Shown in pieces: positions 15,917 to 52,732 of a stretch of 64,000 nt of DNA. The notes beneath the pieces were generated by a model. The model did no database searches and had not been told where the DNA came from. It was given only the letters and a program-made list of their open reading frames with translations. How positions within the stretch are numbered: the stretch's first letter is position 1; each line of letters starts with the position of its first letter. The position numbers were made by a program, and so were the translations under genes. Origin of the DNA: a virus; the IMG/VR virus record IMGVR_UViG_3300010370_000028, positions 71,390-135,389 of that record; one strand, written 5' to 3'.

Positions 15917-18319
15917 ATGATGGAAATTGATAGTTTTAACTTGACTCCAAAAGCAAAATTAGCCCTTAAAGATGCTAAAGAATTTGCTAACCGCAATAAT
16001 CATTCTTTGATTAATAATTGCCATGTTTTATATGGGTGTTGGAAGAATATAAACTCTTCTTTTATTAATTTTGCTGATTTAATGGGTGTCACTCTCAATA
16101 CAGAAAAGTTGAGTGAAATTATCTTAAAATTCGCTAAAAAATATACACTTTTATTTACGGCAAGCTCTCATAATGATGTTTGGGATAATGAAATTCAAAA
16201 CGCTATTAAAAAAGCTAAAGAATTTGCAGACGATCATGAGAACTTTTATATTGGAATTGAACATCTTTTGTTTGGTGTTTTAGAGTGTAACGAAAAATTT
16301 CTTGAATTCCTGCTTAAGAATGATGTTGATTATGAACACCTTAAAGAAGTTATTCACGAATTTATTGTCGGTAAAACCTCAGAACCACCGCCAGCAGAAA
16401 AGGAAGCTACCCAAGTTAAGAAAACTAAAACCAAAGCTATTGAAGCTTATTGCACTCTTTTAAATGACTTGGTTCAAAAAGAAGATTATCAGATAATTTC
16501 TGGTAGAGATAAAGAAATTAATAATATTACTGAGATTCTTTGTAGGAAAACCAAAAGTAATTGCTTGCTTCTTGGTGAGCCAGGAACTGGTAAAACGGCA
16601 ATTGTTGAAGGTCTTGCCCAAAAAATTAATTCAAATGAATGTTCAGAAGTATTAGCCAATAAAAAAATCTACGCTCTTGATCTTAGCTTAATGATTGCTG
16701 GTACTAAATATAGAGGACAGTTTGAAGAAAGGTTTAGCAATTTTCTTGAAGAAGTTAAAGAATTAAAAGATACTATTATCTTTATTGATGAAATTCATGT
16801 GATGGTTGGCGCTGGTAGCTCCGAAGGATCAATGGATGTTGCTAATATGTTGAAGCCAGCATTGGCTCGTGGAGATATTCGTTGCATTGGTGCTACTACG
16901 TACTCAGAATATAAAAAATTCTTTGAGAAAGATGGTGCTTTGTCTAGGCGTTTTGATATTATAAAGGTTGAAGAGCCTAACAAAACTCAAGTTTTTGAAA
17001 TGGTGAAAGCATCAATTGATTCATTTGAAAACTATCATAATGTTGAATACTCTGATGAGCTTATTGATTTAACTATAGATCTTTGCGGCAAGTATCTGCC
17101 TAATAAAAGATTTCCAGATAAAGCTTTCGATGTGATTGACCAAACATGTTCAAAAGTAAAAATTAAAAAAATTAAAAGACCCTCAAAGGCTTTAAAAACC
17201 GAAAAAGAATTAAAAGCAATCTTAGATTCTTCAGAAGAAGATTTTTCTCAAGAAGCTCAAATTCAATGTGCGTTATTGATGGATAAATATACGGCAATTA
17301 TGCAAGATTGGATGTATAGGGTAGCTAAAACAAAATTCAAGATTACTAAAGATGATGTTTATGAAGTTATTGCGAATAAAAGCAATGTTAATGTTAATAC
17401 GATTAAAGAGTCTGCCAACAATACTTTTGCTTCATTCAAAGATAATCTAAAATCAAAAATCTTTGGTCAGTCAGAAAATATTGATAAAATTTATGATACT
17501 TTAGCTTGTGCCAAAGCTGGATTTAATAAATCGAATAGACCTATTGCCAATTTCTTTTTTGTTGGACCAACAAGTGTTGGTAAGACATTTGCCGCAAAAC
17601 AAATTGCAAAAGAATTTTTTGGTAATGAATCTAGCATATTGCAGATCAATATGAGTGAATATCAAGAACAGAATTCAATTTCTAAACTAATTGGAACTAG
17701 CGCTGGTTATGTTGGATTTGAAGAAGGTGGTCTGTTAACGGAGTTTGTCAGACATAATCCTAACAGCGTTATCTTATTTGATGAAGCTGAAAAATGTCAT
17801 AGAAGTATCTTAGATCTATTGCTTCAAATTTTAGATGAAGGTTGTATCAATGATAATCTTAATCGAAAGATTGATTTTACCAGCTGCGTTATAATTCTAA
17901 CTAGTAATATTGGGGTTAAAGAGTCTGAAACAAAATCAATGGGCTTCATTCAGCCAGAAATCAATCATACTAATTCTTATAAAGAGTCTGTAAGAAAACA
18001 ACTACGCCCAGAACTTGTTGCTAGAATTGATGAAATTATTGTTTTCAACTCTTTGGGTAATATGGAATTTGCAAAAATAGTCAATGAACGAATTGATCAA
18101 ATTAAAAATAATTTAAAATCTAAAGAAATTAAAATATCAGTTTCTAAAGACTGTATTGACTATATTGTCAGCAAGTTGAGTAGTGATTTCAATGCTAGAT
18201 CTTTAAATTCAATTATTCGCTCAGAGATTGAAGTTCCAATTGCAGATTTAATTATTAAAAAATCAGATTTGAAGAAAATTTCAATAAAAGTTGTTGACAA
18301 GTTAATTAAAGTGTGCTAA
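15917..18319 (+). CDS. ClpA/ClpC-like AAA+ ATPase
   Basis: Clp N repeats, GEPGTGKT, IFIDE, GPTSVGKT, ILFDE, SMGF ClpP-binding-like loop. Confidence 0.92.
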   Translation: MMEIDSFNLTPKAKLALKDAKEFANRNNHSLINNCHVLYGCWKNINSSFINFADLMGVTLNTEKLSEIILKFAKKYTLLFTASSHNDVWDNEIQNAIKKAKEFADDHENFYIGIEHLLFGVLECNEKFLEFLLKNDVDYEHLKEVIHEFIVGKTSEPPPAEKEATQVKKTKTKAIEAYCTLLNDLVQKEDYQIISGRDKEINNITEILCRKTKSNCLLLGEPGTGKTAIVEGLAQKINSNECSEVLANKKIYALDLSLMIAGTKYRGQFEERFSNFLEEVKELKDTIIFIDEIHVMVGAGSSEGSMDVANMLKPALARGDIRCIGATTYSEYKKFFEKDGALSRRFDIIKVEEPNKTQVFEMVKASIDSFENYHNVEYSDELIDLTIDLCGKYLPNKRFPDKAFDVIDQTCSKVKIKKIKRPSKALKTEKELKAILDSSEEDFSQEAQIQCALLMDKYTAIMQDWMYRVAKTKFKITKDDVYEVIANKSNVNVNTIKESANNTFASFKDNLKSKIFGQSENIDKIYDTLACAKAGFNKSNRPIANFFFVGPTSVGKTFAAKQIAKEFFGNESSILQINMSEYQEQNSISKLIGTSAGYVGFEEGGLLTEFVRHNPNSVILFDEAEKCHRSILDLLLQILDEGCINDNLNRKIDFTSCVIILTSNIGVKESETKSMGFIQPEINHTNSYKESVRKQLRPELVARIDEIIVFNSLGNMEFAKIVNERIDQIKNNLKSKEIKISVSKDCIDYIVSKLSSDFNARSLNSIIRSEIEVPIADLIIKKSDLKKISIKVVDKLIKVC

Positions 18320-28418: not shown

Positions 28419-29498
28419 ATGAATTTTAAAAATTTATTAAAAAATAGATTTTATATTTACCCCGCAAAAGAATTTATTATTGAGGGTGAGAGCTTTAATA
28501 TTGTTGAAAATATTTTAAAAAACGCTGAATTTTCTTGTGATTTGGAAAATAATATTGAGTTTTTAGATTCAAACTATGATTATGATGTTTTTAAATTTTC
28601 AATTTCCGAAAGAAGCTTTATTTTAAAATATTCATTAAATGATCCCAGTGATTTATTGAAAAATGAATTTAACTTAATTTCAGATATTGAAAGTGACTTA
28701 ATTCAAAAACCATATAAAAATAATACTTTTAAATATGGTGATTATATTTCTTATTCAATTTACTCATTTGAAGAGGAGCCTTCTTTTAAAGAAACTGGGT
28801 ATTCAAATTTTCTAAAAAATTTAGATGTATTTTATAACTGTTTTTCAACTTATAATAAAAAATCAATTTCGAAACTTAATATAGATGATTATATAATTAA
28901 TTTTTTGAATAATCATAAAATAGAAAATTTAACAATCCACGAAATAGAAACTATTAAAAATACACTAGATTTAGATTTAATAAATTCTTTTTTAAATAAT
29001 ATAAAAGCCGAAATAAAGTATTATTTATCTCAAGTAAAAAATAACAATAAGTCATTATGTCACGGCAACTTAATTGCTTCTAATATTTTAGATGGCGGTG
29101 AATATTTTAAATTTATTAATTTTATTAATGCTTTTAATTCACATGAGTATTATGATCTTTGTGATGCATTTTTTAATTTTAAACTCCCTATCTCTTTTGA
29201 AAGAGATTATTTTTTCAACTTCTTAAAATTTAAAGGAAGTAAATTTGAATTGGAGGAGTGGGAATTATATAAAAACTATTATAATATAATAATAAGAAAA
29301 AAATTAATTGAATATATATTTGCTTTAATTTATGAAAAATATGTATTATTTTTTAATAGACCAATTAAAATATATTCCACAGTAAATGATTTTAGTTTAA
29401 GTTTAGATCATTTTCTCAAAGTACCAGAATTTAAGAAAAATTATAAATATATTGCTGACCTATTCTCTTCGTTAATTTTAGAAAATGAATCAAATTAA
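28419..29498 (+). CDS. APH/choline-kinase-fold protein, catalytic Asp residues replaced
   Basis: FILK, LCHGNL..SNIL, FINF, YDL. Confidence 0.65.
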   Translation: MNFKNLLKNRFYIYPAKEFIIEGESFNIVENILKNAEFSCDLENNIEFLDSNYDYDVFKFSISERSFILKYSLNDPSDLLKNEFNLISDIESDLIQKPYKNNTFKYGDYISYSIYSFEEEPSFKETGYSNFLKNLDVFYNCFSTYNKKSISKLNIDDYIINFLNNHKIENLTIHEIETIKNTLDLDLINSFLNNIKAEIKYYLSQVKNNNKSLCHGNLIASNILDGGEYFKFINFINAFNSHEYYDLCDAFFNFKLPISFERDYFFNFLKFKGSKFELEEWELYKNYYNIIIRKKLIEYIFALIYEKYVLFFNRPIKIYSTVNDFSLSLDHFLKVPEFKKNYKYIADLFSSLILENESN

Positions 29499-43380: not shown

Positions 43381-44027
43381 TTAAGGTTGAATTTATTGAC
43401 AAAATGGGGTCAGATCTTTCTGTCGTTAATGCGGCGAGAGTATCTTTCAATAAGAAGTCTGGCTACAACGAAGATGGAACATTCAAAGAAGGTGATGAAA
43501 GACTTATTGCTTTCTTAGCAAGAGAAAATCATTGGACTCCATTTGGTCATGCTTCACTTTCATTTCATATCAAAGCTCCAATTTTTGTTGCTAGACAACT
43601 AGTAAAACATACAGTTGGACTTGTATGGAACGAGGTAAGTCGCCGCTATGTAGATTCAGAACCAGAAATTTTTTATCCAGATAATTGGCGTAAAAAGAAT
43701 GAAGATAAAAAACAAGGATCTCATGAAGATCAATTTGTTGATGTATCTTTTGCTGATGATTGTAGTATTTATGCGAGTTGTGAAATTGCAGTAGCAACAT
43801 ACAAAAGTCTTCTTGCTGCTGGTGTTTGTGCCGAACAAGCTAGAATGGTTTTACCGCAAAATATTATGACAGAATGGTATTGGTCTGGATCTCTTCATGC
43901 TTTCGCTCGTGTTTGTAACTTGCGTTGCAAAAAAGATACACAAAAAGAAACTAGAGATGTTGCAGATCAAATTGATCAAATCGCAAAAGAACATTTTCCT
44001 GTTAGTTGGAAATATTTGAGACAATGA
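43377..44027 (+). CDS. thyX: FAD-dependent thymidylate synthase
   Basis: VNAARVS, HWTPF, RQLVKH...NEVSRRY, EQARMVLP, TQKETR. Confidence 0.95.
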   Translation: MIKVEFIDKMGSDLSVVNAARVSFNKKSGYNEDGTFKEGDERLIAFLARENHWTPFGHASLSFHIKAPIFVARQLVKHTVGLVWNEVSRRYVDSEPEIFYPDNWRKKNEDKKQGSHEDQFVDVSFADDCSIYASCEIAVATYKSLLAAGVCAEQARMVLPQNIMTEWYWSGSLHAFARVCNLRCKKDTQKETRDVADQIDQIAKEHFPVSWKYLRQ

Positions 44028-44596
44028 AAGTAGTTACCTCGCAGTGTAAAACAACACTCTTGCTTAATAATGCTTGGCAACCAATTAATGCTATTACAGC
44101 GAGAGCCGCATTCTCACATTTATTGAAGGGACATATTACTGCTCTTGATAAAAACAATAATGTGTTTCATTCTTTAGATAGATGGAATAAAGACGCTGAG
44201 TTTTATGAAGATCAACCTGTATTAAGAAGTGCCAAAGGTGTTTGGCCTATTCCAACTGTTATTATTGTAACGAGTAAGTTTTTTCGCCGCCCAAAGAAAA
44301 AGAAATTGACTACTTTGGAGATGGCAAAGATTTATAACTTTACTTGTCAGTATTGTTTAAATAAATTTAAAATTGCTGATTTAACAATTGATCACATCAA
44401 CCCCAAAAGTAAAGGTGGTACAGATGATCATGAAAATAGAACTTTAGCTTGCAAACCTTGTAACACAAGAAAGGCTAGTAAGTTTCCATTTTTTAATGTT
44501 AAAAATGAACCAGTAGCCGCACCAGAAATTCCTGCTTTGATGTTGAATACGAGTAAAGTTAGAAGAGAGTGGGAGTATTTTTTGGGTTCTGTGTAA
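44024..44596 (+). CDS. HNH endonuclease (McrA-like)
   Basis: LLLNNAWQP, CQYC, TIDHINPKSKGG, N..LACKPCN..K. Confidence 0.88.
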   Translation: MKVVTSQCKTTLLLNNAWQPINAITARAAFSHLLKGHITALDKNNNVFHSLDRWNKDAEFYEDQPVLRSAKGVWPIPTVIIVTSKFFRRPKKKKLTTLEMAKIYNFTCQYCLNKFKIADLTIDHINPKSKGGTDDHENRTLACKPCNTRKASKFPFFNVKNEPVAAPEIPALMLNTSKVRREWEYFLGSV

Positions 44597-44851: not shown

Positions 44852-44937
44852 GGGTAGATACCCAAGTGGCTAAAGGGGGCAGACTGTAAATCTGCTGATG
44901 TATGTCTACGTTGGTTCGAATCCAACTCTGCCCACCA
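44852..44937 (+). tRNA. tRNA-Tyr(GTA)
   Basis: Cloverleaf, CT-GTA-AA loop, long variable arm, encoded CCA. Confidence 0.95.
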
Positions 44938-44942
44938 TTTTC

Positions 44943-45016
44943 GCGGGATTTGTATAATGGTAATACGCCATCCTTCCAAGTTGGAGTCATCAGTTCGATT
45001 CTGATATCCCGCACCA
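44943..45016 (+). tRNA. tRNA-Gly(TCC)
   Basis: Cloverleaf, CT-TCC-AA loop, CCA. Confidence 0.93.
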
Positions 45017-45020
45017 ATTT

Positions 45021-45463
45021 TTCCCTGCCATTGTAGGCTGAGATCCTGCAATGAGCGAGTTGACAGAGAGCGGGTTAGCAACCCGATGATGTCAAACGTA
45101 ATCCGACACAAATTAAAGTAGGCTTGGAGTCGCTACCAAGATGAAATAGTCACTGTGTTTCTTCAAATTGATCAAAGCTGCGCTTGGTTAATTAATCGGT
45201 AGTGGGGAATATTCGTATCATGCACGAATTAAAATATGTCATGACGCAGCTAGGTGTGGTTCCTAGATAGCCACAGCCCTTGGCGAGTGTGACAGCAATC
45301 TGTTATGGGCAAATCATTTTCTATGTTTTTTCTATTGTGGTCTTTATCGCCCGAAGTATGTTGGGAAAGCAGATTGGAAATCTCCGACGAGCCTCTACTA
45401 GCAGAAAAGTGACAGAAGGATAAACGAGTGGTGTCTTGGACCGAAGCTTCTTCAGCAATAGAA
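45021..45463 (+). ncRNA. Unassigned structured RNAs within the tRNA array
   Basis: Three folded units (45021-45209, 45211-45310, 45330-45463) with nested stems and G-U pairs, GC-richer than the flanks. Confidence 0.65.
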
Positions 45464-45475
45464 AGTTTTTTTAAC

Positions 45476-45497
45476 TCCAAAGTAGCTCAGTTAGTAG
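45476..45497 (+). pseudogene. Truncated tRNA 5' fragment (Asn-like TCC start)
   Basis: TCCAAAG-TA-GCTC-AGTTAGTAG = acceptor 5' strand plus D-arm start; interrupted by the HNH ORF. Confidence 0.65.
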
Positions 45498-46035
45498 TAT
45501 TTAAATTTATTAATTTAAGTCTTTTTCTAATAGATGTTTCAGAAACATTTAAAATTTTTGAAATTTTTATATTTGATAAATTTTGTTTCTTTAATTCAAG
45601 AAGGTCTTTATCTGTAAATTTTCTTTTGTTATTATTATAACAAAGTGTGCAATAATTTGCGCTTGGATCTTTTTGATTACCACAAACACATTTTCTTTTA
45701 TTAGTTATTATTAATTTTTGCTCTTTTAAAAAATCATCATTAAATTGATAAAAATTTGTTGGTAAATCAACATAATTATTATGCACTTCTCTATGACAAT
45801 TTGCACAAAGTAAAATACATTTTTTCAATTCTGGTACGACAACATTATCCCAACTTTTTGGATTTGCGCGAATATTTGCTAATCCAATATCTTTTTTAGA
45901 TGGATCTAAATGATGAAATTCTAAAGATGCATTGCATTTGTTGTAACCGCAAATCTGACAACATCCACCCATACACTTAATCATTTTATCTTTATTATTT
46001 TTTCTCCACTCTTTTACTTTTTCTTTACTCATCAT
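45487..46035 (-). CDS. HNH homing endonuclease with C-terminal Zn ribbon and HTH
   Basis: GGCCQICGY, LEFHHLDP, CILLCANCHREVH; CVCG..CTLC; NIKISKILNVSETSIRKRL. Confidence 0.88.
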   Translation of the reverse strand: MMSKEKVKEWRKNNKDKMIKCMGGCCQICGYNKCNASLEFHHLDPSKKDIGLANIRANPKSWDNVVVPELKKCILLCANCHREVHNNYVDLPTNFYQFNDDFLKEQKLIITNKRKCVCGNQKDPSANYCTLCYNNNKRKFTDKDLLELKKQNLSNIKISKILNVSETSIRKRLKLINLNTTN

Positions 46036-46074
46036 GTAATAATAAGTTTTTAAGTTCGAATTTCAAATTAAACT

Positions 46075-46102
46075 TTGACAAAAAAATATTTTAACATATA
46101 AT
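46075..46102 (+). promoter_or_regulatory. sigma70 promoter restarting the tRNA array after the HNH gene
   Basis: TTGACA-16 nt-TATAAT. Confidence 0.8.
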
Positions 46103-46117
46103 AAAACATAATTTTAA

Positions 46118-46192
46118 TGTAGAGTGGCAGACTAGCAATGCATTCGCCTGTTAAGCGAAACTATGTGGGAGCGTAACCCACCTCTACAGCCA
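46118..46192 (+). tRNA. tRNA-Asn(GTT), atypical D/T loops
   Basis: TGTAGAG/CTCTACA acceptor, TTCGC-CTGTTAA-GCGAA, G73, CCA; T-loop AGCGTAA. Confidence 0.85.
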
Positions 46193-46198
46193 TTTTTA

Positions 46199-46273
46199 GC
46201 CGATTTAGCACAGTGGTAGTGCAACTCATTTGTAATGAGTAGGTCGTTGGTTCGAATCCGACAATCGGCTCCA
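46199..46273 (+). tRNA. tRNA-Thr(TGT)
   Basis: Canonical cloverleaf, CCA. Confidence 0.95.
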
Positions 46274-46279
46274 TTTTTT

Positions 46280-46356
46280 CGGGATGTAACTCAGCTTGGT
46301 AGAGTGCTGCGTTTGGGACGCAGATGTCGCATGTTCGAATCGTGTCATCCCGACCA
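46280..46356 (+). tRNA. tRNA-Pro(TGG)
   Basis: Canonical cloverleaf, CCA. Confidence 0.95.
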
Positions 46357-46359
46357 TTA

Positions 46360-46432
46360 GGGGGTATAGCTCAGTTGGTAGAGCGTTAGCTTTGCAAGCT
46401 AAATGTCTGGGGTTCGAATCCCCATGCCTCCA
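46360..46432 (+). tRNA. tRNA-Ala(TGC)
   Basis: G3-U70, canonical cloverleaf, CCA not encoded (CAA). Confidence 0.95.
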
Positions 46433-46440
46433 CAATTTTT

Positions 46441-46514
46441 CGCACGTTGGCAGAGAAGTCATGCAGTGGTCTGCAAAACCGCATAGTCCAGAGCGTTACT
46501 GGAACGTGCGTCCA
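46441..46514 (+). tRNA. tRNA-Cys(GCA), atypical D/T loops
   Basis: CGCACGT/ACGTGCG acceptor, U73, CCA; T-loop AGCGTTA. Confidence 0.85.
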
Positions 46515-46516
46515 AA

Positions 46517-46589
46517 GGGGAGTTAGCACAGCGGTGGTTGCGTCTGCTTTACACGCAGAATGTCGGGGGTTCGAATCCCTCACTCCCTA
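46517..46589 (+). tRNA. tRNA-Val(TAC)
   Basis: Cloverleaf, TT-TAC-AC loop, no CCA. Confidence 0.92.
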
Positions 46590-46592
46590 TTT

Positions 46593-47903
46593 TTATCTAT
46601 TTATTTCTTCCCAATCTAAAGAACCATAAGCAGTTTCTGAAGCTGTACTTGCGGCAATAGCAAGAGTAAGTTCTGTTGAGGTATTAGTAAATGGATTTCT
46701 TTCTAATTGAAATTTAAGAAGTTCGCTTTTTGGCAAATCAATCTGTGATGATGACTGATTACTTGAACTTATAAACCCTTTTGCTACGACTAAACCACCA
46801 GAAATTGTAGTGCCATCAAGTTTATATTCTACAGCTGAATCGGTTCCAGCAGATACCCAAGTACCATTTGTTGTTGTACCATTCTTAATCAATCTCCATT
46901 CACATATTGATGTATCTACAGTCAATGCGGAAGCGGCAGATGGAACAACTATTGCATCTAATTTATCAGATTTCAATCTTAATGAAACTAAAGGATAAAA
47001 AATACCAGCATCAGTTAAAGATTTAGCGCCAGTTATCGGCGTTCCAATTGCCTGTTGAGTTCCTCTTAATTCATAACCACCCTCAGACATAACAGTTGAA
47101 CATATTTGCTTTAATGTTCCAGATGTAGATAAATTTCCGACATTAAAAATTTCATATCTTAATGGAAGACTTGCGGTTTTTAAATATGTTCCTTGTATTT
47201 GATTAGCATGATGGAATGAATGAGCTAAAATAAATTTACCATCAATTACAAACCCTGCTCTAATTGTTCCTGCACCAAGCCACTCCATGTCATTCCAAAA
47301 TATTTGAGACTTTGTTGAATCTAAAGTATATTGAGAATAACCACTTCCATTTAATTTATCTCCATTCCATTCAGATTGCGGCACTTTAATTTCTATTGGA
47401 CTTCCGCTAATGGAAGTTCTTTTAACTAAATTTAATACAGAACCGCTTTGTTCTATAAAAACACCATCCGCAGAACCAAAATATCCAATTCTTTGTACAA
47501 GATTTGTTTGTGGTGGAGACATTGTAAATGTACTAAGTGACATTAAAGATTTTCCAGGTTGGTAAGGGAAAACTTTTCTCGTTTCTCTATAAATATAGCA
47601 ACCAGAACCAGTCGAAATATTTAAATCCATTAAACCTTGATTTTGATTAAATGTTGCATTGCCTGTACCACCAGTTGCGGTTGCCCACAATCCATTGTCA
47701 GCATATCTATGACTTGAATCAAATAAAGTGAATGGTTCAGATATTCTTAAACGACCAAAACTATCGAAACGAGTTTCTTCAAAACCAAGATCTCCCTTTT
47801 CTATTGGTCTATAATGATCATTATATTTATCATATAAAAAAGGAATCTGTCCTGCCGTATGGGATAATTGTCCAAGATTCTGGAATGTATATTGGTCTGC
47901 CAT
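46593..47903 (-). CDS. Putative virion structural protein (beta-rich)
   Basis: DSFGRLRISEPFTLFD, YQPGKS, EWLGAG motifs; GTGTAA upstream. Confidence 0.65.
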   Translation of the reverse strand: MADQYTFQNLGQLSHTAGQIPFLYDKYNDHYRPIEKGDLGFEETRFDSFGRLRISEPFTLFDSSHRYADNGLWATATGGTGNATFNQNQGLMDLNISTGSGCYIYRETRKVFPYQPGKSLMSLSTFTMSPPQTNLVQRIGYFGSADGVFIEQSGSVLNLVKRTSISGSPIEIKVPQSEWNGDKLNGSGYSQYTLDSTKSQIFWNDMEWLGAGTIRAGFVIDGKFILAHSFHHANQIQGTYLKTASLPLRYEIFNVGNLSTSGTLKQICSTVMSEGGYELRGTQQAIGTPITGAKSLTDAGIFYPLVSLRLKSDKLDAIVVPSAASALTVDTSICEWRLIKNGTTTNGTWVSAGTDSAVEYKLDGTTISGGLVVAKGFISSSNQSSSQIDLPKSELLKFQLERNPFTNTSTELTLAIAASTASETAYGSLDWEEINR

Positions 47904-47985
47904 TCCATTTATTTACACTTTTAATTCGAAAATTGTCTGAAATTCACCTTGACTCTGAGTAAATTCATGCTATGCTAATAACATA

Positions 47986-48375
47986 ATGAAGCTGTACATT
48001 GAAAAATGGGTGACTGAAACAATCTGGACTGGCAAACTTACCAGCATTGATACAGAACTTTTGAGAGAAAGATTCGATAATCTTAAAGAACTTTCTGACG
48101 AAGAGATTATTGAAGAATTGCAAAACAATGATTACCTATATGATCTAAATTATATTCTTGATGATGTCGATGCACTTCATGCCGAAAACTCAAGTGCAGA
48201 AAAATCTCTCGATTATCAAGTTGACATTCATACAAGTGATGATATAATGGATAAACTTGAGTGGAGAGCTTGGTATAGAGGATGTAGAGAATTTCCACGC
48301 TCAGATAAACTTGAGTATGAAAAAGAAAAATTTATTGAAATGATTCCAGAAATAAAAGGTTTTGATATGATTTAA
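47986..48375 (+). CDS. Acidic hypothetical protein
   Basis: ORF after TTGACT(47949)-16 nt-TATGCT. Confidence 0.65.
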   Translation: MKLYIEKWVTETIWTGKLTSIDTELLRERFDNLKELSDEEIIEELQNNDYLYDLNYILDDVDALHAENSSAEKSLDYQVDIHTSDDIMDKLEWRAWYRGCREFPRSDKLEYEKEKFIEMIPEIKGFDMI

Positions 48376-48387
48376 AAGATTTTAAAT

Positions 48388-48465
48388 GCGCGGGTAGTCC
48401 AACAGGTAGGAGACAAGTGACTTAAAATCACTACAGTATGGGTTCGAATCCCATTCCGCGTACCA
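48388..48465 (+). tRNA. tRNA-Leu(TAA), short variable arm
   Basis: AGTGA-CTTAAAA-TCACT, GGTTCGAATCC, CCA. Confidence 0.9.
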
Positions 48466-48478
48466 ATTATAAAATAAC

Positions 48479-48550
48479 ACACCTATAGCTCAATGGCAGA
48501 GCATGGTTCTCATAAAACTGGGGTTATTGGTTCGAGTCCAATTGGGTGTA
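48479..48550 (+). tRNA. tRNA-CAT (Met or Ile2)
   Basis: ACACCTA/TGGGTGT acceptor, CT-CAT-AA loop, no CCA. Confidence 0.88.
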
Positions 48551-48553
48551 TTC

Positions 48554-48910
48554 TTATTGTGAGCCATGATGCACTTCCATATGGCAATTACAACAAAGCA
48601 ATTGACATTTTGAAGCTTCATCTAAAATATAATCTATTCTTCTATTTGATAAACTTCTTATATCTAATTGAAAAGACTTAGTTGATGGATCTAAATGATG
48701 AAACGATAAAGCGGCTAGAGATTTATTATAACCACAAATTTCACAACAACCACCTTTCATTTTAATTAATTCTAATTTACGATCTTTCCCTCTTTTTTGT
48801 TGAGCTTGATAATTTTGATGTTTATGATTAGCAGTAGATTGTTTGCATTTAATAGAACACCATTTAGTTTGATTTCCCGATAAATTTGATTGACAATTTT
48901 GACATTTCAT
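48554..48910 (-). CDS. HNH homing endonuclease with N-terminal Zn finger
   Basis: CQNC...WCSIKC; GGCCEICGY, LSFHHLDP, CQLLCCNCHMEVH. Confidence 0.88.
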   Translation of the reverse strand: MKCQNCQSNLSGNQTKWCSIKCKQSTANHKHQNYQAQQKRGKDRKLELIKMKGGCCEICGYNKSLAALSFHHLDPSTKSFQLDIRSLSNRRIDYILDEASKCQLLCCNCHMEVHHGSQ

Positions 48911-48955
48911 ATAATATTATACACCAATTATGAAATAATTCATAATCTTTTTAAA

Positions 48956-49028
48956 CCTCCGTTAACTCAATCGGCAGAGTACTCTCTTTATAAGGGAGAA
49001 GTTACTGGTTCAAGCCCAGTACGGAGAA
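48956..49028 (+). tRNA. tRNA-Ile(TAT)
   Basis: CTCTC-TTTATAA-GGGAG anticodon arm, ACTGG-TTCAAGC-CCAGT T-arm, C1xA72 mismatch, no CCA. Confidence 0.8.
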
Positions 49029-49044
49029 TTCTTTTCCCAATAAC

Positions 49045-49209
49045 ATGAAAGTAACAATCGAAATCAACGGTGAAAAATTTGAAGCAGAAGGTAATTATAT
49101 TCCTACTGTTTTAGATGAGGTTTTGCATGAGGCGGGAATTCTAGAAGAAGAAGAGAATGTTTTCTTTTTAGATAAAGGTCAGCAAAAGAATTATTATAGG
49201 TATTGTTAA
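49045..49209 (+). CDS. Small hypothetical protein (54 aa)
   Basis: MKVTIEINGEKFEAEG...RYC fills the gap between two tRNAs; below ORF-track cutoff. Confidence 0.5.
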   Translation: MKVTIEINGEKFEAEGNYIPTVLDEVLHEAGILEEEENVFFLDKGQQKNYYRYC

Positions 49210-49212
49210 ATG

Positions 49213-49303
49213 GGGTAGATGGCTGAGTTGGTCTAAGGCGCTCGACTTGAAATCGAGAGAGGTTTAATCGCCTCCGTGGGTTCGAATCCTACTCTACCCG
49301 CCA
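49213..49303 (+). tRNA. tRNA-Ser(TGA)
   Basis: Long variable arm, G73, CCA. Confidence 0.95.
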
Positions 49304-50496: not shown

Positions 50497-50964
50497 ATGC
50501 CTCTTCCAAAACCAAAAAATAAGGAAAAAAGGAGCGACTTTATTGGTCGTTGTGTATCTGAAGTAGCAAAAGATCCAAAGTTTAAAGATAACAAACAAAG
50601 AGTTGCTATTTGCTATACCCAATTCAAAGAAGCAAAAGCCTCTGCAGATGGTGTAGTTGCTCTTGCTAATGATGATGAAATGCTTTTATTTTCAAAATCA
50701 GCTCAAGAAGTAGGTTTAAATGCGCCAGAGATGGAAGATGAAACTCCAGAAGAGGAACTTTTAGAAACAAATAAAGATCTTTATGGAATGGCAGTTGGTT
50801 CAATCACTTCAATTAAAGCTCATGCAGATAACATTTTAAATGCTTTAAATGATCCAAAGGTTCAAGAAAACCTTACAGAAACATGGATGCAGGGAAAACT
50901 TGCCATTGCTGAGGATTATTTGGTTACTGTTCATAACTATGTTATGTTCAATAAAGAAGACTAA
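50497..50964 (+). CDS. Conserved hypothetical phage protein
   Basis: MPLPKP...FIGRC...QRVAICY N-terminal motif. Confidence 0.7.
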   Translation: MPLPKPKNKEKRSDFIGRCVSEVAKDPKFKDNKQRVAICYTQFKEAKASADGVVALANDDEMLLFSKSAQEVGLNAPEMEDETPEEELLETNKDLYGMAVGSITSIKAHADNILNALNDPKVQENLTETWMQGKLAIAEDYLVTVHNYVMFNKED

Positions 50965-51026
50965 GGGTGCGTTATTGGTTTCGACATGACATTGGTCGTG
51001 GACGGGGTTCGAATCCCCAGCATCCA
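50965..51026 (+). ncRNA. Minimal tmRNA-like RNA (tRNA-like domain only)
   Basis: 5' GGGTGCGTTATTGGTTTCGAC and 3' GGACGGGGTTCGAATCCCCAGCATCCA match tmRNA termini; G3-U70, A73; joined by a 6-bp hairpin. Confidence 0.75.
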
Positions 51027-51067
51027 CTTTTTTATTTCTTAAATGCTTTTTTCGTGTAAAAAGATAC

Positions 51068-52732
51068 ATGGGACCAAGATATCTCCAAGCACAAATACAC
51101 GCCGATTATTCTACAGGATCAAGTGCTTGGTCTGACTATAGAAGTCAAATTAAATCAATGTATGATTTATCTAACTCAAAAGAAGATTTTAATGATCATT
51201 TGATCCGTGAATATAATAGAAAAATTGATAGATTAAATAAAAAACAGATATTATATATTTCACCATTTGATGCGGGTTATAGATTTATTGGTGATACTAT
51301 AAATGAACCATATATATTTGATGGTCTTATTGCTTATTGGAAACTAGATGAAACCAGTGGAACTCGTTATGATTCATACGGGGATTATCATCTTAGTAGT
51401 TATAGAATTGATAGTGACACTGGAGTAGTTGGTAATAGTGCAGTTTCAAATTCTGATGGATCATTTCCCGCTCCAAATTTACAAATTAAACCATCTCCAT
51501 ATGACTCAGTTGGGGCAAGTTGGAGTTTATCTTTTTGGATGTCAACAAATGACGATGTGAGTGCGGAAACTAATCAAATGTTTCCAAATGCTTGGGCTAA
51601 TTGTTGTTTATTTAGAATTCGTACAATCAGCGGAGTTCCAACTGTTGAAGGTTCAGTTTGGCACGATCCTATAGGTATGAATCAGCCTACATTAACTGAT
51701 GTGAGCAAATCTGGGGTTTATGGCGGTGGATTTGTTCATGTCGCTATAACCCATGATTTACCAATAAAAACAATACGTGTATATTATGATGGTGTTGAAG
51801 AACATATGTTTGTTTATAATACTACTCTTTGTGGTGTAAGTCCTCTAAATGGATTTGAAAACGATATTCTTTCCATGTTTGCTGGAGATTATTATGGTAG
51901 TAACTATGGTGGTGCTGGTAAATTAGATGAAGTTGGAATTTGGGGACGCGCTCTTGAAGCGAGCGAAGTTTCTACACTTTATAACAATGGTAATTATAAT
52001 TATCCTAATAATCCATTTAATTTATTAGATAATCTTATTGCTTATTGGAAATTAAATGAAACAAGTGGGACTCGCTATGATTCACATGGAAGTTATGATC
52101 TTATTGAGTATGGTAGTGGAGAAATTGAAAGTGGTGGAGGAGTAATAGGCAATAGCGCAATTCAAAATAATCTTGGTGAAGGAGTAAGCTTATACATAGC
52201 GCCATCTCCATATGATTCCGTTAATTCTAGTTGGAGTTTTTCTTTTTGGATGTCTACCAATGATAATGGCGATGATACAAATCAAGTATTTCCAAATGCT
52301 TGGACTAATTGCTGTTTATTTCGCATTAGAACTCTTGATGGTGACGCATATCAAACAGTTGAAGGTTCGTTCTGGCATGATCCTATAGATGTAAATGAGC
52401 CTACATTCACTGATGTAAGCAAATCTGGGGTTTATGGTGGTGGATTTGTTCACGTTGCTGTAACACACGATCTTGCAACAAAAACGGTACGTGTATATTA
52501 CAATGGTGTTGAAGAGCATGTTCTTGTTTATAACACTACTCTTTGTGGTGTAAGTCCTCTATATGAACTTGAAAATACAATTCTTTCAATGTTTGCTGGA
52601 GATATTAATGGTACTGGTTATCCTGGGCCTGGTAAATTAGATGAAATTGGTATTTGGGAGCGTGTACTTCAACCCGTTGAGATTTTGGCACTTTATAATA
52701 ATGGTGATGGAATTACTTACGAAGATTTTTAA
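51068..52732 (+). CDS. Virion protein with two LamG/concanavalin-like domains
   Basis: Two copies of LIAYWKL.ETSGTRYD...SFWM...HVA.T...LDE.GIW.R.L...E...LYN. Confidence 0.85.
   Translation: MGPRYLQAQIHADYSTGSSAWSDYRSQIKSMYDLSNSKEDFNDHLIREYNRKIDRLNKKQILYISPFDAGYRFIGDTINEPYIFDGLIAYWKLDETSGTRYDSYGDYHLSSYRIDSDTGVVGNSAVSNSDGSFPAPNLQIKPSPYDSVGASWSLSFWMSTNDDVSAETNQMFPNAWANCCLFRIRTISGVPTVEGSVWHDPIGMNQPTLTDVSKSGVYGGGFVHVAITHDLPIKTIRVYYDGVEEHMFVYNTTLCGVSPLNGFENDILSMFAGDYYGSNYGGAGKLDEVGIWGRALEASEVSTLYNNGNYNYPNNPFNLLDNLIAYWKLNETSGTRYDSHGSYDLIEYGSGEIESGGGVIGNSAIQNNLGEGVSLYIAPSPYDSVNSSWSFSFWMSTNDNGDDTNQVFPNAWTNCCLFRIRTLDGDAYQTVEGSFWHDPIDVNEPTFTDVSKSGVYGGGFVHVAVTHDLATKTVRVYYNGVEEHVLVYNTTLCGVSPLYELENTILSMFAGDINGTGYPGPGKLDEIGIWERVLQPVEILALYNNGDGITYEDF
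51320..52705. repeat. Intragenic tandem duplication (~708 bp unit)
   Basis: Near-identical DNA blocks starting ~51320 and ~52028. Confidence 0.85.

Follow-up and report, generated by a model that had tools for sequence, protein, structure and literature searches.

The element and its identity

We analysed a 64,000-nucleotide stretch of viral DNA (IMG/VR record IMGVR_UViG_3300010370_000028, positions 71,390 to 135,389; hereafter the window), in which an open reading frame (ORF) of 155 codons is followed by a 62-nt RNA gene that resembles the tRNA-like domain (TLD) of transfer-messenger RNA (tmRNA) and carries no mRNA-like domain. We refer to this gene as a mini-TLD. Its first base, G1, is the first base past the TAA stop of the upstream ORF in the ORF list, and where a complete tmRNA has helix P2, the pseudoknots and its tag frame, there is a short hairpin (Table 1). 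The minimum-energy fold is exactly the TLD structure laid out in the table, at -22.1 kcal/mol. A preliminary description of the locus, made from the letters alone, had listed both tmRNA termini, G3:U70, A73 and a U-tract, and had named three deviations from a standard TLD (a 4-bp T stem, the G7xA66 mismatch and the lack of an encoded CCA); all of these details are present in the sequence.

The tmRNA model of Rfam (RF00023), which was built independently of the window sequence, aligns through its positions 1-372 to 50965-51027 around an internal deletion of 312 positions, so that the alignment covers the first 26 and the last 40-odd positions of the model. The score is 22.3 bits, with an E-value of 1.5e-7 over the 201 nt searched and of about 5e-5 when we rescaled it to the whole window; the gathering score of the model is 47 bits. 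Pseudoknots PK1-PK4 and the long helix P2 are absent, being represented by the 312 deleted positions. The mRNA-like domain (resume codon, tag frame and stop) is absent as well, with 16 nt between the two TLD halves and no tag peptide reported by ARAGORN. What remains is a 7-bp acceptor stem with G3:U70, the discriminator A73, an unpaired D loop with TTCGAC, the sequence GGAC and a T arm with a TTCRANT-type loop, the exceptions being the G7xA66 mismatch and the 4-bp T stem. The element also has the size and build of a phage TLD-only tmRNA, that is, roughly 60-85 nt with the TLD closed by a short helix. The match retained at the site was to tmRNA; a second match, lower in score and belonging to another family of that clan, was dropped with its identity not displayed, and no tRNA match was listed. 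Across the relatives in alignment A1, the tmRNA motifs TTCGAC, GGA, the T loop and TCCA are invariant. The earlier claim that this phage RNA consists of the tRNA-like domain of tmRNA only is thus borne out by an alignment that places both termini around the deletion.

Taken with the conservation described below, these comparisons show that the element is a tmRNA-derived RNA gene, conserved among viral relatives and with a structure under selection. An attP site or 3' fragment of ssrA was considered separately and rejected, as the 5' half is present and no PF00589 integrase was found in three relative genome records.

Table 1 The mini-TLD, its parts and other features of the window and of one related record (window positions unless another record is named)
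Feature	Coordinates	Strand	Details
TLD-only mini-tmRNA gene	50965-51026	+	62 nt, G1 to discriminator A73; RF00023 match, model R1, fold
Acceptor stem, 5' strand	50965-50971	+	GGGTGCG, G1-G7; G3 pairs with U70 (alanine identity pair)
Unpaired D-loop analogue	50972-50984	+	GG plus conserved tmRNA TTCGA(C) motif at 3' end; aligned to RF00023 consensus; columns invariant in alignment A1
Hairpin	50985-51000	+	CATGAC / ATTG / GTCGTG, 6 bp including one U.G pair, 4-nt loop; sequence, fold
Linker	51001-51003	+	GAC; sequence
T stem and T loop	51004-51018	+	GGGG/CCCC (4 bp), canonical 7-nt loop TTCGAAT; sequence, RF00023 alignment
Acceptor stem, 3' strand	51019-51025	+	AGCATCC; G3:U70; A66 opposite G7 is a mismatch
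Discriminator A73	51026	+	followed by a single C (51027), then TTTTTT; CCA not encoded
T-rich tail	51028-51059	+	TTTTTT...TTTTTT, possible transcript end; sequence; next ORF starts at 51068
Upstream ORF	50497-50964	+	155 aa; TAA stop abuts G1
tRNA cluster	44852-49303		10-11 genes; ARAGORN, Rfam
HNH endonuclease ORF	44006-44596	+	edge of tRNA cluster
HNH endonuclease ORF	45487-46035	-	inside tRNA cluster
Virion structural protein gene	46593-47903	-	inside tRNA cluster; 55-58% identical to T4-like cyanophage proteins
Two-ring AAA+ protein, Hsp100/Clp type	15917-18319	+	800 aa; Pfam AAA, AAA_lid_9, AAA_2, ClpB_D2-small; PHROG 'ATP-dependent protease'
Full-length tmRNA of relative G003	L139, 1501-1942	-	92.8 bits; unusually long ARAGORN tag EAEYIFNNADEFLAGFEEESYALAA

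Conservation at the locus and across viruses

Searching IMG/VR with the protein encoded upstream of the element yielded 12 loci. In seven (L008, L009, L010, L011, L012, L013 and L014), a mini-TLD lies 0-1 nt past the stop of the upstream ORF; in the other five (L015-L019), none lies downstream of it. The window copy is therefore not a unique deletion within a group of relatives that carry a full tmRNA at the site, the outcome that had been named beforehand as speaking against a functional gene. Four loci of one type, represented by L008, differ hardly at all from the window copy across the 5' half and hairpin. Their T stem has 5 bp, C66 is paired, CCA is encoded, and a tRNA gene sits between this CCA and the T-rich tail. 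In L011-L013, by contrast with this near-identity, hairpins and acceptor stems have strongly diverged with pairing retained. The hairpin loop measures 4-5 nt in the syntenic relatives and 4 nt in the window. CCA is encoded in all seven syntenic relatives, and the same 4-bp T arm as in the window occurs in seven loci that encode CCA (L001-L004, L006, L007 and L012). Two mini-TLDs (L011 3485-3556 and L013 3484-3555) have lost both the GG of the D loop and the TTC of the T loop while keeping all stems, their T loops reading GGCGGCT and GGCAGTT; the loops concerned are those that make up the tRNA elbow, and their change is coordinated. L011 also contains a group I intron match inside its tRNA region (931-1132, +; 59.3 bits against a gathering score of 50).

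An alignment of ten sequences on the named structure has 95.7% of its cells paired. Both sides have changed in 11 of the 19 pairs, across all three helices, and in five of the eight pairs of the hairpin helix, and the resulting covariation score was reached by none of 500 shuffles. When the partner register was slid by 1-3 columns, pairing fell to 37-60%. The pairs G1:C72, G2:C71 and G3:U70 are invariant in all ten mini-TLDs. The covariation check on homologues that the preliminary description had called for thus comes out in its favour, with compensatory changes in every helix. A covariance model built from this alignment (R1) matches the window once, at 50965-51029, with 66.6 bits.

Contigs assembled from other public sequencing runs, all of those holding the stretch being labelled aquatic, freshwater or marine, carry variants of the same locus. 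A DNA contig from run X3 has an L008-type T arm, differing by five indels and two substitutions that were matched on both strands; these changes turn the 4-bp T stem into a 5-bp stem and restore C66. At the 3' junction, where the window lacks the tRNA gene, the X3 contig has no indel, and contigs from X5 and X23 are likewise collinear across it, so that the junction recurs in three runs from three studies. Because it is collinear in the X3 contig, the tRNA-less tail is not peculiar to this assembly. Other contigs from RNA libraries in the region include one from X23 (50506-50675) and pieces from X24; stretches without contig cover carry no meaning.

To survey mini-TLDs beyond the syntenic loci, we searched IMG/VR with a pattern that joins TTCGAC, a T-loop core and CCACCA at mini-gene spacing and leaves position 70 free. 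It matches at least 120 stretches, of which 119 were read back, and the count of mini-TLDs is accordingly a lower bound. Among these matches listed, 59 of 119 are TLD-only genes whose 7-bp acceptor stem is perfect and lies 10-18 nt upstream of TTCGAC, a stem expected by chance about 0.01 times per match; they comprise 49 distinct sequences of 62-85 nt, and G3:U70 is present in all 59. Fifty-six mini-TLDs, aligned to R1, have 97.6% of cells paired, with G1:C72, G2:C71 and G3:U70 each in 56 of 56 and compensated variation at positions 4-7, although this alignment was fitted to R1 and pairs 1 and 2 were constrained by the search pattern. In 12 of the 56 loci, a tRNA gene is located no more than 100 nt away. 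ARAGORN calls three of the 56, one as a tRNA and two as over-long tmRNAs; the long calls, at L120 and L032, were rejected as apparent over-extensions, the Rfam match being confined to a mini gene of 83-85 nt.

Two size classes can be told apart. Genes of about 80 nt (L025 3031-3110, L120 5905-5987 and L032 3234-3318) have a longer hairpin with an A-rich internal loop and exceed the RF00023 gathering score even when just the mini gene is scored (81.1, 74.5 and 69.9 bits), and annotation pipelines may label them 'tmRNA' and overlook the lost coding part. Scores are lower in the class of about 63-66 nt (43.5 bits for L021), which includes the window copy (22.3 bits). Two other RNA matches were seen beside the larger genes: a Pistol ribozyme match about 100 nt upstream of the mini-TLD in L120, an unrelated viral contig (6093-6154, -; 51.9 bits, gathering score 34.5), and a tRNA-Sec-like match in the tRNA run that follows the mini-TLD in L025 (3199-3273, +; 37.3 bits, gathering score 47).

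In bacterial and archaeal genomes, a slightly stricter pattern gave at least 120 matches, and only two of the 120 listed resemble mini-TLDs. The subtype found in the window, defined by the 5' half plus hairpin, occurs in no bacterial genome and, within IMG/VR, only in four contigs that had been recovered before. BLAST against 50,697 isolate-phage records with the 1.3-kb region, the 63-nt element and a recurrent 66-nt type returned nothing useful, the 63-nt element giving just chance-level partial matches (E >= 2); no cultured relative in that set carries the element in a form visible to BLAST.

The phage and its relatives

The window, part of a large tailed phage, is low in GC (25-36% GC per 4-kb bin; 31% GC for the phage). 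Among its products are lambda-like tail-tip proteins, a DnaE-like polymerase, a DnaB-like helicase, RIIA/RIIB, ThyX and an endolysin; in isolate phages, no relative of the polymerase exceeds 30% identity. The tRNA cluster upstream of the element includes an eleventh gene (46118-46189, +) that is found by Rfam at 46.8 bits and not reported by ARAGORN. CCA is encoded by seven of the 11 tRNA genes and missing from four (Ala, Val, Met-CAT and Ile-UAU, with 3' ends at 46432, 46589, 48550 and 49028), so the host must add CCA to some of the phage tRNAs. The 155-aa protein encoded directly upstream of the mini-TLD has no Pfam or PHROG match, and its look-alikes in the Atlas are viral hypothetical proteins only; in these three resources there was no indication that it binds the mini-TLD RNA.

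Three related genome records differ in their tmRNA content. G001, a complete genome of 140 kb whose polymerase and Hsp100-like ATPase are 74% and 47% identical to those of the window, has one mini-TLD and no SmpB gene, full tmRNA or tyrosine integrase; a mini-TLD RNA in such a phage must therefore use host factors. In G003 (polymerase 47% identical) there is no mini-TLD and instead a full 442-nt tmRNA, scoring 92.8 bits, with a tag frame that ends in YALAA. G002, a fragment sharing the tRNA cluster, has neither form in its available part. Within the broader lineage, then, the tmRNA gene may be full-length, of the mini form or missing. SmpB was found in none of the three records, which were the records that the search covered, and the tyrosine integrase family PF00589 was likewise absent from all three, one of them complete; the scan of the window itself covered 26 ORFs.

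The gene for the Hsp100/Clp-type protein directly follows that for the DnaE-like polymerase, and the pair is adjacent in G001 too. The presence of a Clp-type unfoldase in a phage with a tag-less tmRNA hints at a possible link between the two.

Function and comparison with known systems

Trans-translation is nearly universal in bacteria, and to our knowledge it is poorly understood whether phages assist or sabotage it. We consider it probable, with moderate confidence and on comparative sequence evidence, that the mini-TLD is a functional phage gene for a tag-less mini-tmRNA that can be charged with alanine, competes with host tmRNA and suppresses or diverts tagging. The RNA would be co-transcribed with the upstream ORF, cut by RNase P at G1 and trimmed at its 3' end, after which the host CCA-adding enzyme would complete it, a step made plausible by the four window tRNA genes that also lack CCA. 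Host alanyl-tRNA synthetase (AlaRS) would charge it through G3:U70 and A73, and host SmpB would bind at the conserved D-loop and elbow motifs. Competition with host tmRNA could then arise through titration of SmpB; in addition, a complex of Ala-TLD, SmpB and EF-Tu might enter stalled ribosomes and accept the nascent chain, which, as both the resume codon and the tag frame are lacking, would receive no degradation tag. The net effect would be that host tagging by trans-translation is suppressed or diverted during infection. Both ideas put forward in the preliminary description, an SmpB decoy and tag-less ribosome entry, are plausible and match published statements on such molecules: tmRNA is strongly inhibited by a molecule resembling the TLD, whether or not it can be charged, perhaps via SmpB titration (Mao 2009, cited in PMC4131195), and an RNA made of the TLD alone can act as acceptor in peptidyl transfer in vitro (Shimizu and Ueda 2006, cited in PMC3895274). 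The strict conservation of G3:U70 and A73 suggests that charging matters, which favours a molecule that goes to the ribosome and is not merely a sponge.

Several observations weigh against this proposal. The stability of the fold is ordinary (z = -1.65), with 16 of 200 shuffles folding equally well or better. The Rfam and ARAGORN checks that had been suggested at the outset gave a divided answer: RF00023 aligns, at a score under its gathering threshold (22.3 versus 47 bits), so that the element is absent from a whole-window search at that threshold, and ARAGORN calls neither a tRNA nor a tmRNA there. A consensus scan called no terminator, and promoter-like sites are as frequent as in shuffled sequence (11 versus 11.0). 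The sole RNA-library cover of the element is one 151-nt contig from X23 over 50962-51103, and contigs cannot show transcription, ends or strand. Among eight syntenic copies, that of the window alone lacks an encoded CCA. Its acceptor/T stack has 11 layers where the canonical number is 12 and includes the G7xA66 mismatch, features that could impair EF-Tu binding or ribosome use. The invariance of G3:U70, which we take as a probable mark of selection for charging, could partly be inherited. Finally, the gene is dispensable, as G002, the closest available relative by tRNA cluster (68% complete), has no mini-TLD in its available part.

An unlikely alternative is that the RNA serves as a tag-less rescue factor: the charged mini-TLD and host SmpB would free ribosomes stalled on truncated phage or host mRNAs, the released products would be unmarked for Clp/Lon proteolysis, and translation capacity and phage proteins would be kept late in infection. 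The strict retention of G3:U70, A73 and, in the relatives, CCA fits such a role, as a pure SmpB sponge would not need them, and the full tmRNA of G003 indicates that trans-translation is a process in which phages of this group do invest. Peptidyl transfer to a TLD-only RNA in vitro (PMC3895274) and the persistence, together with SmpB, of tmRNAs that lack a coding sequence (CDS) in jakobid mitochondria and some plastids (PMC11915505) point the same way. However, a ribosome carrying a peptidyl-TLD would need another release route in the absence of a resume and stop codon, the in vivo outcome published for such a molecule is inhibition (PMC4131195), and the shortened 11-layer stack of the window copy also argues against productive use.

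A broader set of proposals, rather doubtful when all its parts are taken jointly, extends the competition with host tmRNA to phages at large. TLD-only mini-tmRNAs would be a widespread, mostly unannotated phage counter-measure against host trans-translation, in which an alanine-charged RNA uses host SmpB, enters stalled ribosomes and stops ssrA tagging of phage proteins. They might pair with the phage Hsp100/Clp-type unfoldase or bait SmpB-like defence sensors, and full-length forms and mini forms with 5-bp and 4-bp T stems might interchange within one lineage as hosts or defences change. At a spacing of 0-1 nt, the RNase P cut would leave an upstream mRNA that ends at its stop codon, in which case the upstream gene could itself be subject to trans-translation and be protected by the mini-TLD.

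It is improbable that the RNA is instead an anti-defence decoy, a mimic of tRNA or tmRNA that absorbs or misleads host factors other than SmpB, such as nucleases that cut tRNA or tmRNA or defence proteins with SmpB-like RNA-binding domains. The large tRNA set of the phage is compatible with this, the SmpB-like OB folds of CoCoNuT restriction systems are predicted to bind tmRNA-like RNA (PMC10542128), and a phage anti-CRISPR complex uses t(m)RNA fragments (PMC11662646). Nothing computed here ties the element to any defence system, however, and the conserved alanine identity set points to AlaRS and the ribosome.

We regard it as quite improbable that the element is a non-functional remnant, either a phage tmRNA that suffered a deletion and is decaying or a fragment of ssrA acquired as an attachment site. 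The window copy lacks CCA, has the 7:66 mismatch and a 4-bp T stem and has lost the tRNA that follows the element in its nearest relatives, and the gene is absent from some relatives, all of which could be read as decay. Yet the position is conserved and compensatory changes run through all three helices, seven other loci have this 4-bp T arm and do encode CCA, and the tRNA-less 3' junction is collinear in the X3, X5 and X23 contigs. Both halves are present, unlike in an attP core; the three relative records, one complete, have no tyrosine integrase; and no bacterial genome contains the 5' half plus hairpin. An aberrant tRNA-Ala without a D arm or anticodon arm, serving in decoding or in extra-ribosomal alanine donation and not derived from tmRNA, would account for the alanine identity elements and the canonical T loop but is highly improbable, as the 4-nt loop AUUG (4-5 nt in syntenic relatives) cannot be an anticodon loop, the match kept at the site is tmRNA with no tRNA match listed, the tmRNA-specific TTCGAC and GGA are invariant, and ARAGORN and RF00005 (at its gathering threshold) are silent at the element.

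If the inhibitory mechanism that we favour holds, mini-TLDs would be natural minimal inhibitors of the SmpB-tmRNA system and a handle on why phages care about ribosome rescue. TLD-only genes are common in uncultivated phages (59 of the 119 matches listed) and rare among the matches of a similar pattern in bacterial genomes (two of the 120 listed). The kind has already been described and is little studied; the window copy is a very compact new member, a strongly reduced example with structural support that comes from another phage lineage and another habitat than Mycobacterium phage DS6A, the precedent.

PMC4131195 lists DS6A as 'TLD only', and PMC11915505, whose virus set is RefSeq, takes it up again, so the preliminary description was mistaken in stating that no such RNA was known from a phage. 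Full-text literature searches for phage TLD-only tmRNAs returned, in the text available from those sources, no natural example besides DS6A. A survey that reports ARAGORN-detectable tmRNAs in 402 of 18,146 phage genomes (PMC9004378) makes no mention of TLD-only forms in its available text. We located the DS6A element, which is unannotated, at 28478-28560 of JN698994 (RF00023, 43.2 bits), starting 11 nt past the stop of gp33. The two RNAs are alike in being phage-borne with little beyond the TLD, in an RF00023 alignment that joins both termini around a deletion at a sub-gathering score (43.2 bits versus 22.3 in the window), in lying just after a CDS stop in an intergenic gap and in not encoding CCA. 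They differ in that the DS6A element measures 83 nt, has a longer, internally looped hairpin, a GGTCGAC D loop and 7+5 stem geometry, is GC-rich and comes from an actinophage, whereas the window RNA has 62 nt, a plain hairpin of 6 bp whose loop counts 4 nt, and a 4-bp T stem, and belongs to a 31% GC aquatic phage. Model R1 gives no match in DS6A at E<=1 or at E<=1e-5, only general tmRNA motifs being common to both. On these comparisons the two elements are of the same kind and not close kin, and we do not claim common descent.

Engineered TLD constructs share with the mini-TLD an acceptor stem, an unpaired D loop, a short closing helix and a T arm. They are reported to inhibit tmRNA in vivo and, with SmpB, to accept peptidyl transfer in vitro (Mao et al. 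2009, cited in PMC4131195; Shimizu and Ueda 2006, cited in PMC3895274), but they are laboratory truncations of host tmRNA, whereas the window holds a natural, conserved phage gene with an 11-layer stack. The CDS-less organellar tmRNAs, among them genes of about 65 bp in Mallomonadaceae plastids, are similar in length (about 65 nt), consist of the TLD only and are presumed partners of SmpB (PMC11915505). These are organelle genes that replace the resident tmRNA, in contrast to the window RNA, which a virus brings into a cell that presumably has a full tmRNA of its own. Full-length phage tmRNAs, known from the mycobacteriophage Bxz1 group and Bacillus phage G and, in two pieces, from phage Melnitz (PMC4131195, PMC9004378), are phage-borne ssrA derivatives as well, as is that of G003, but they keep the resume codon, the tag frame and the pseudoknots, none of which the window RNA has.

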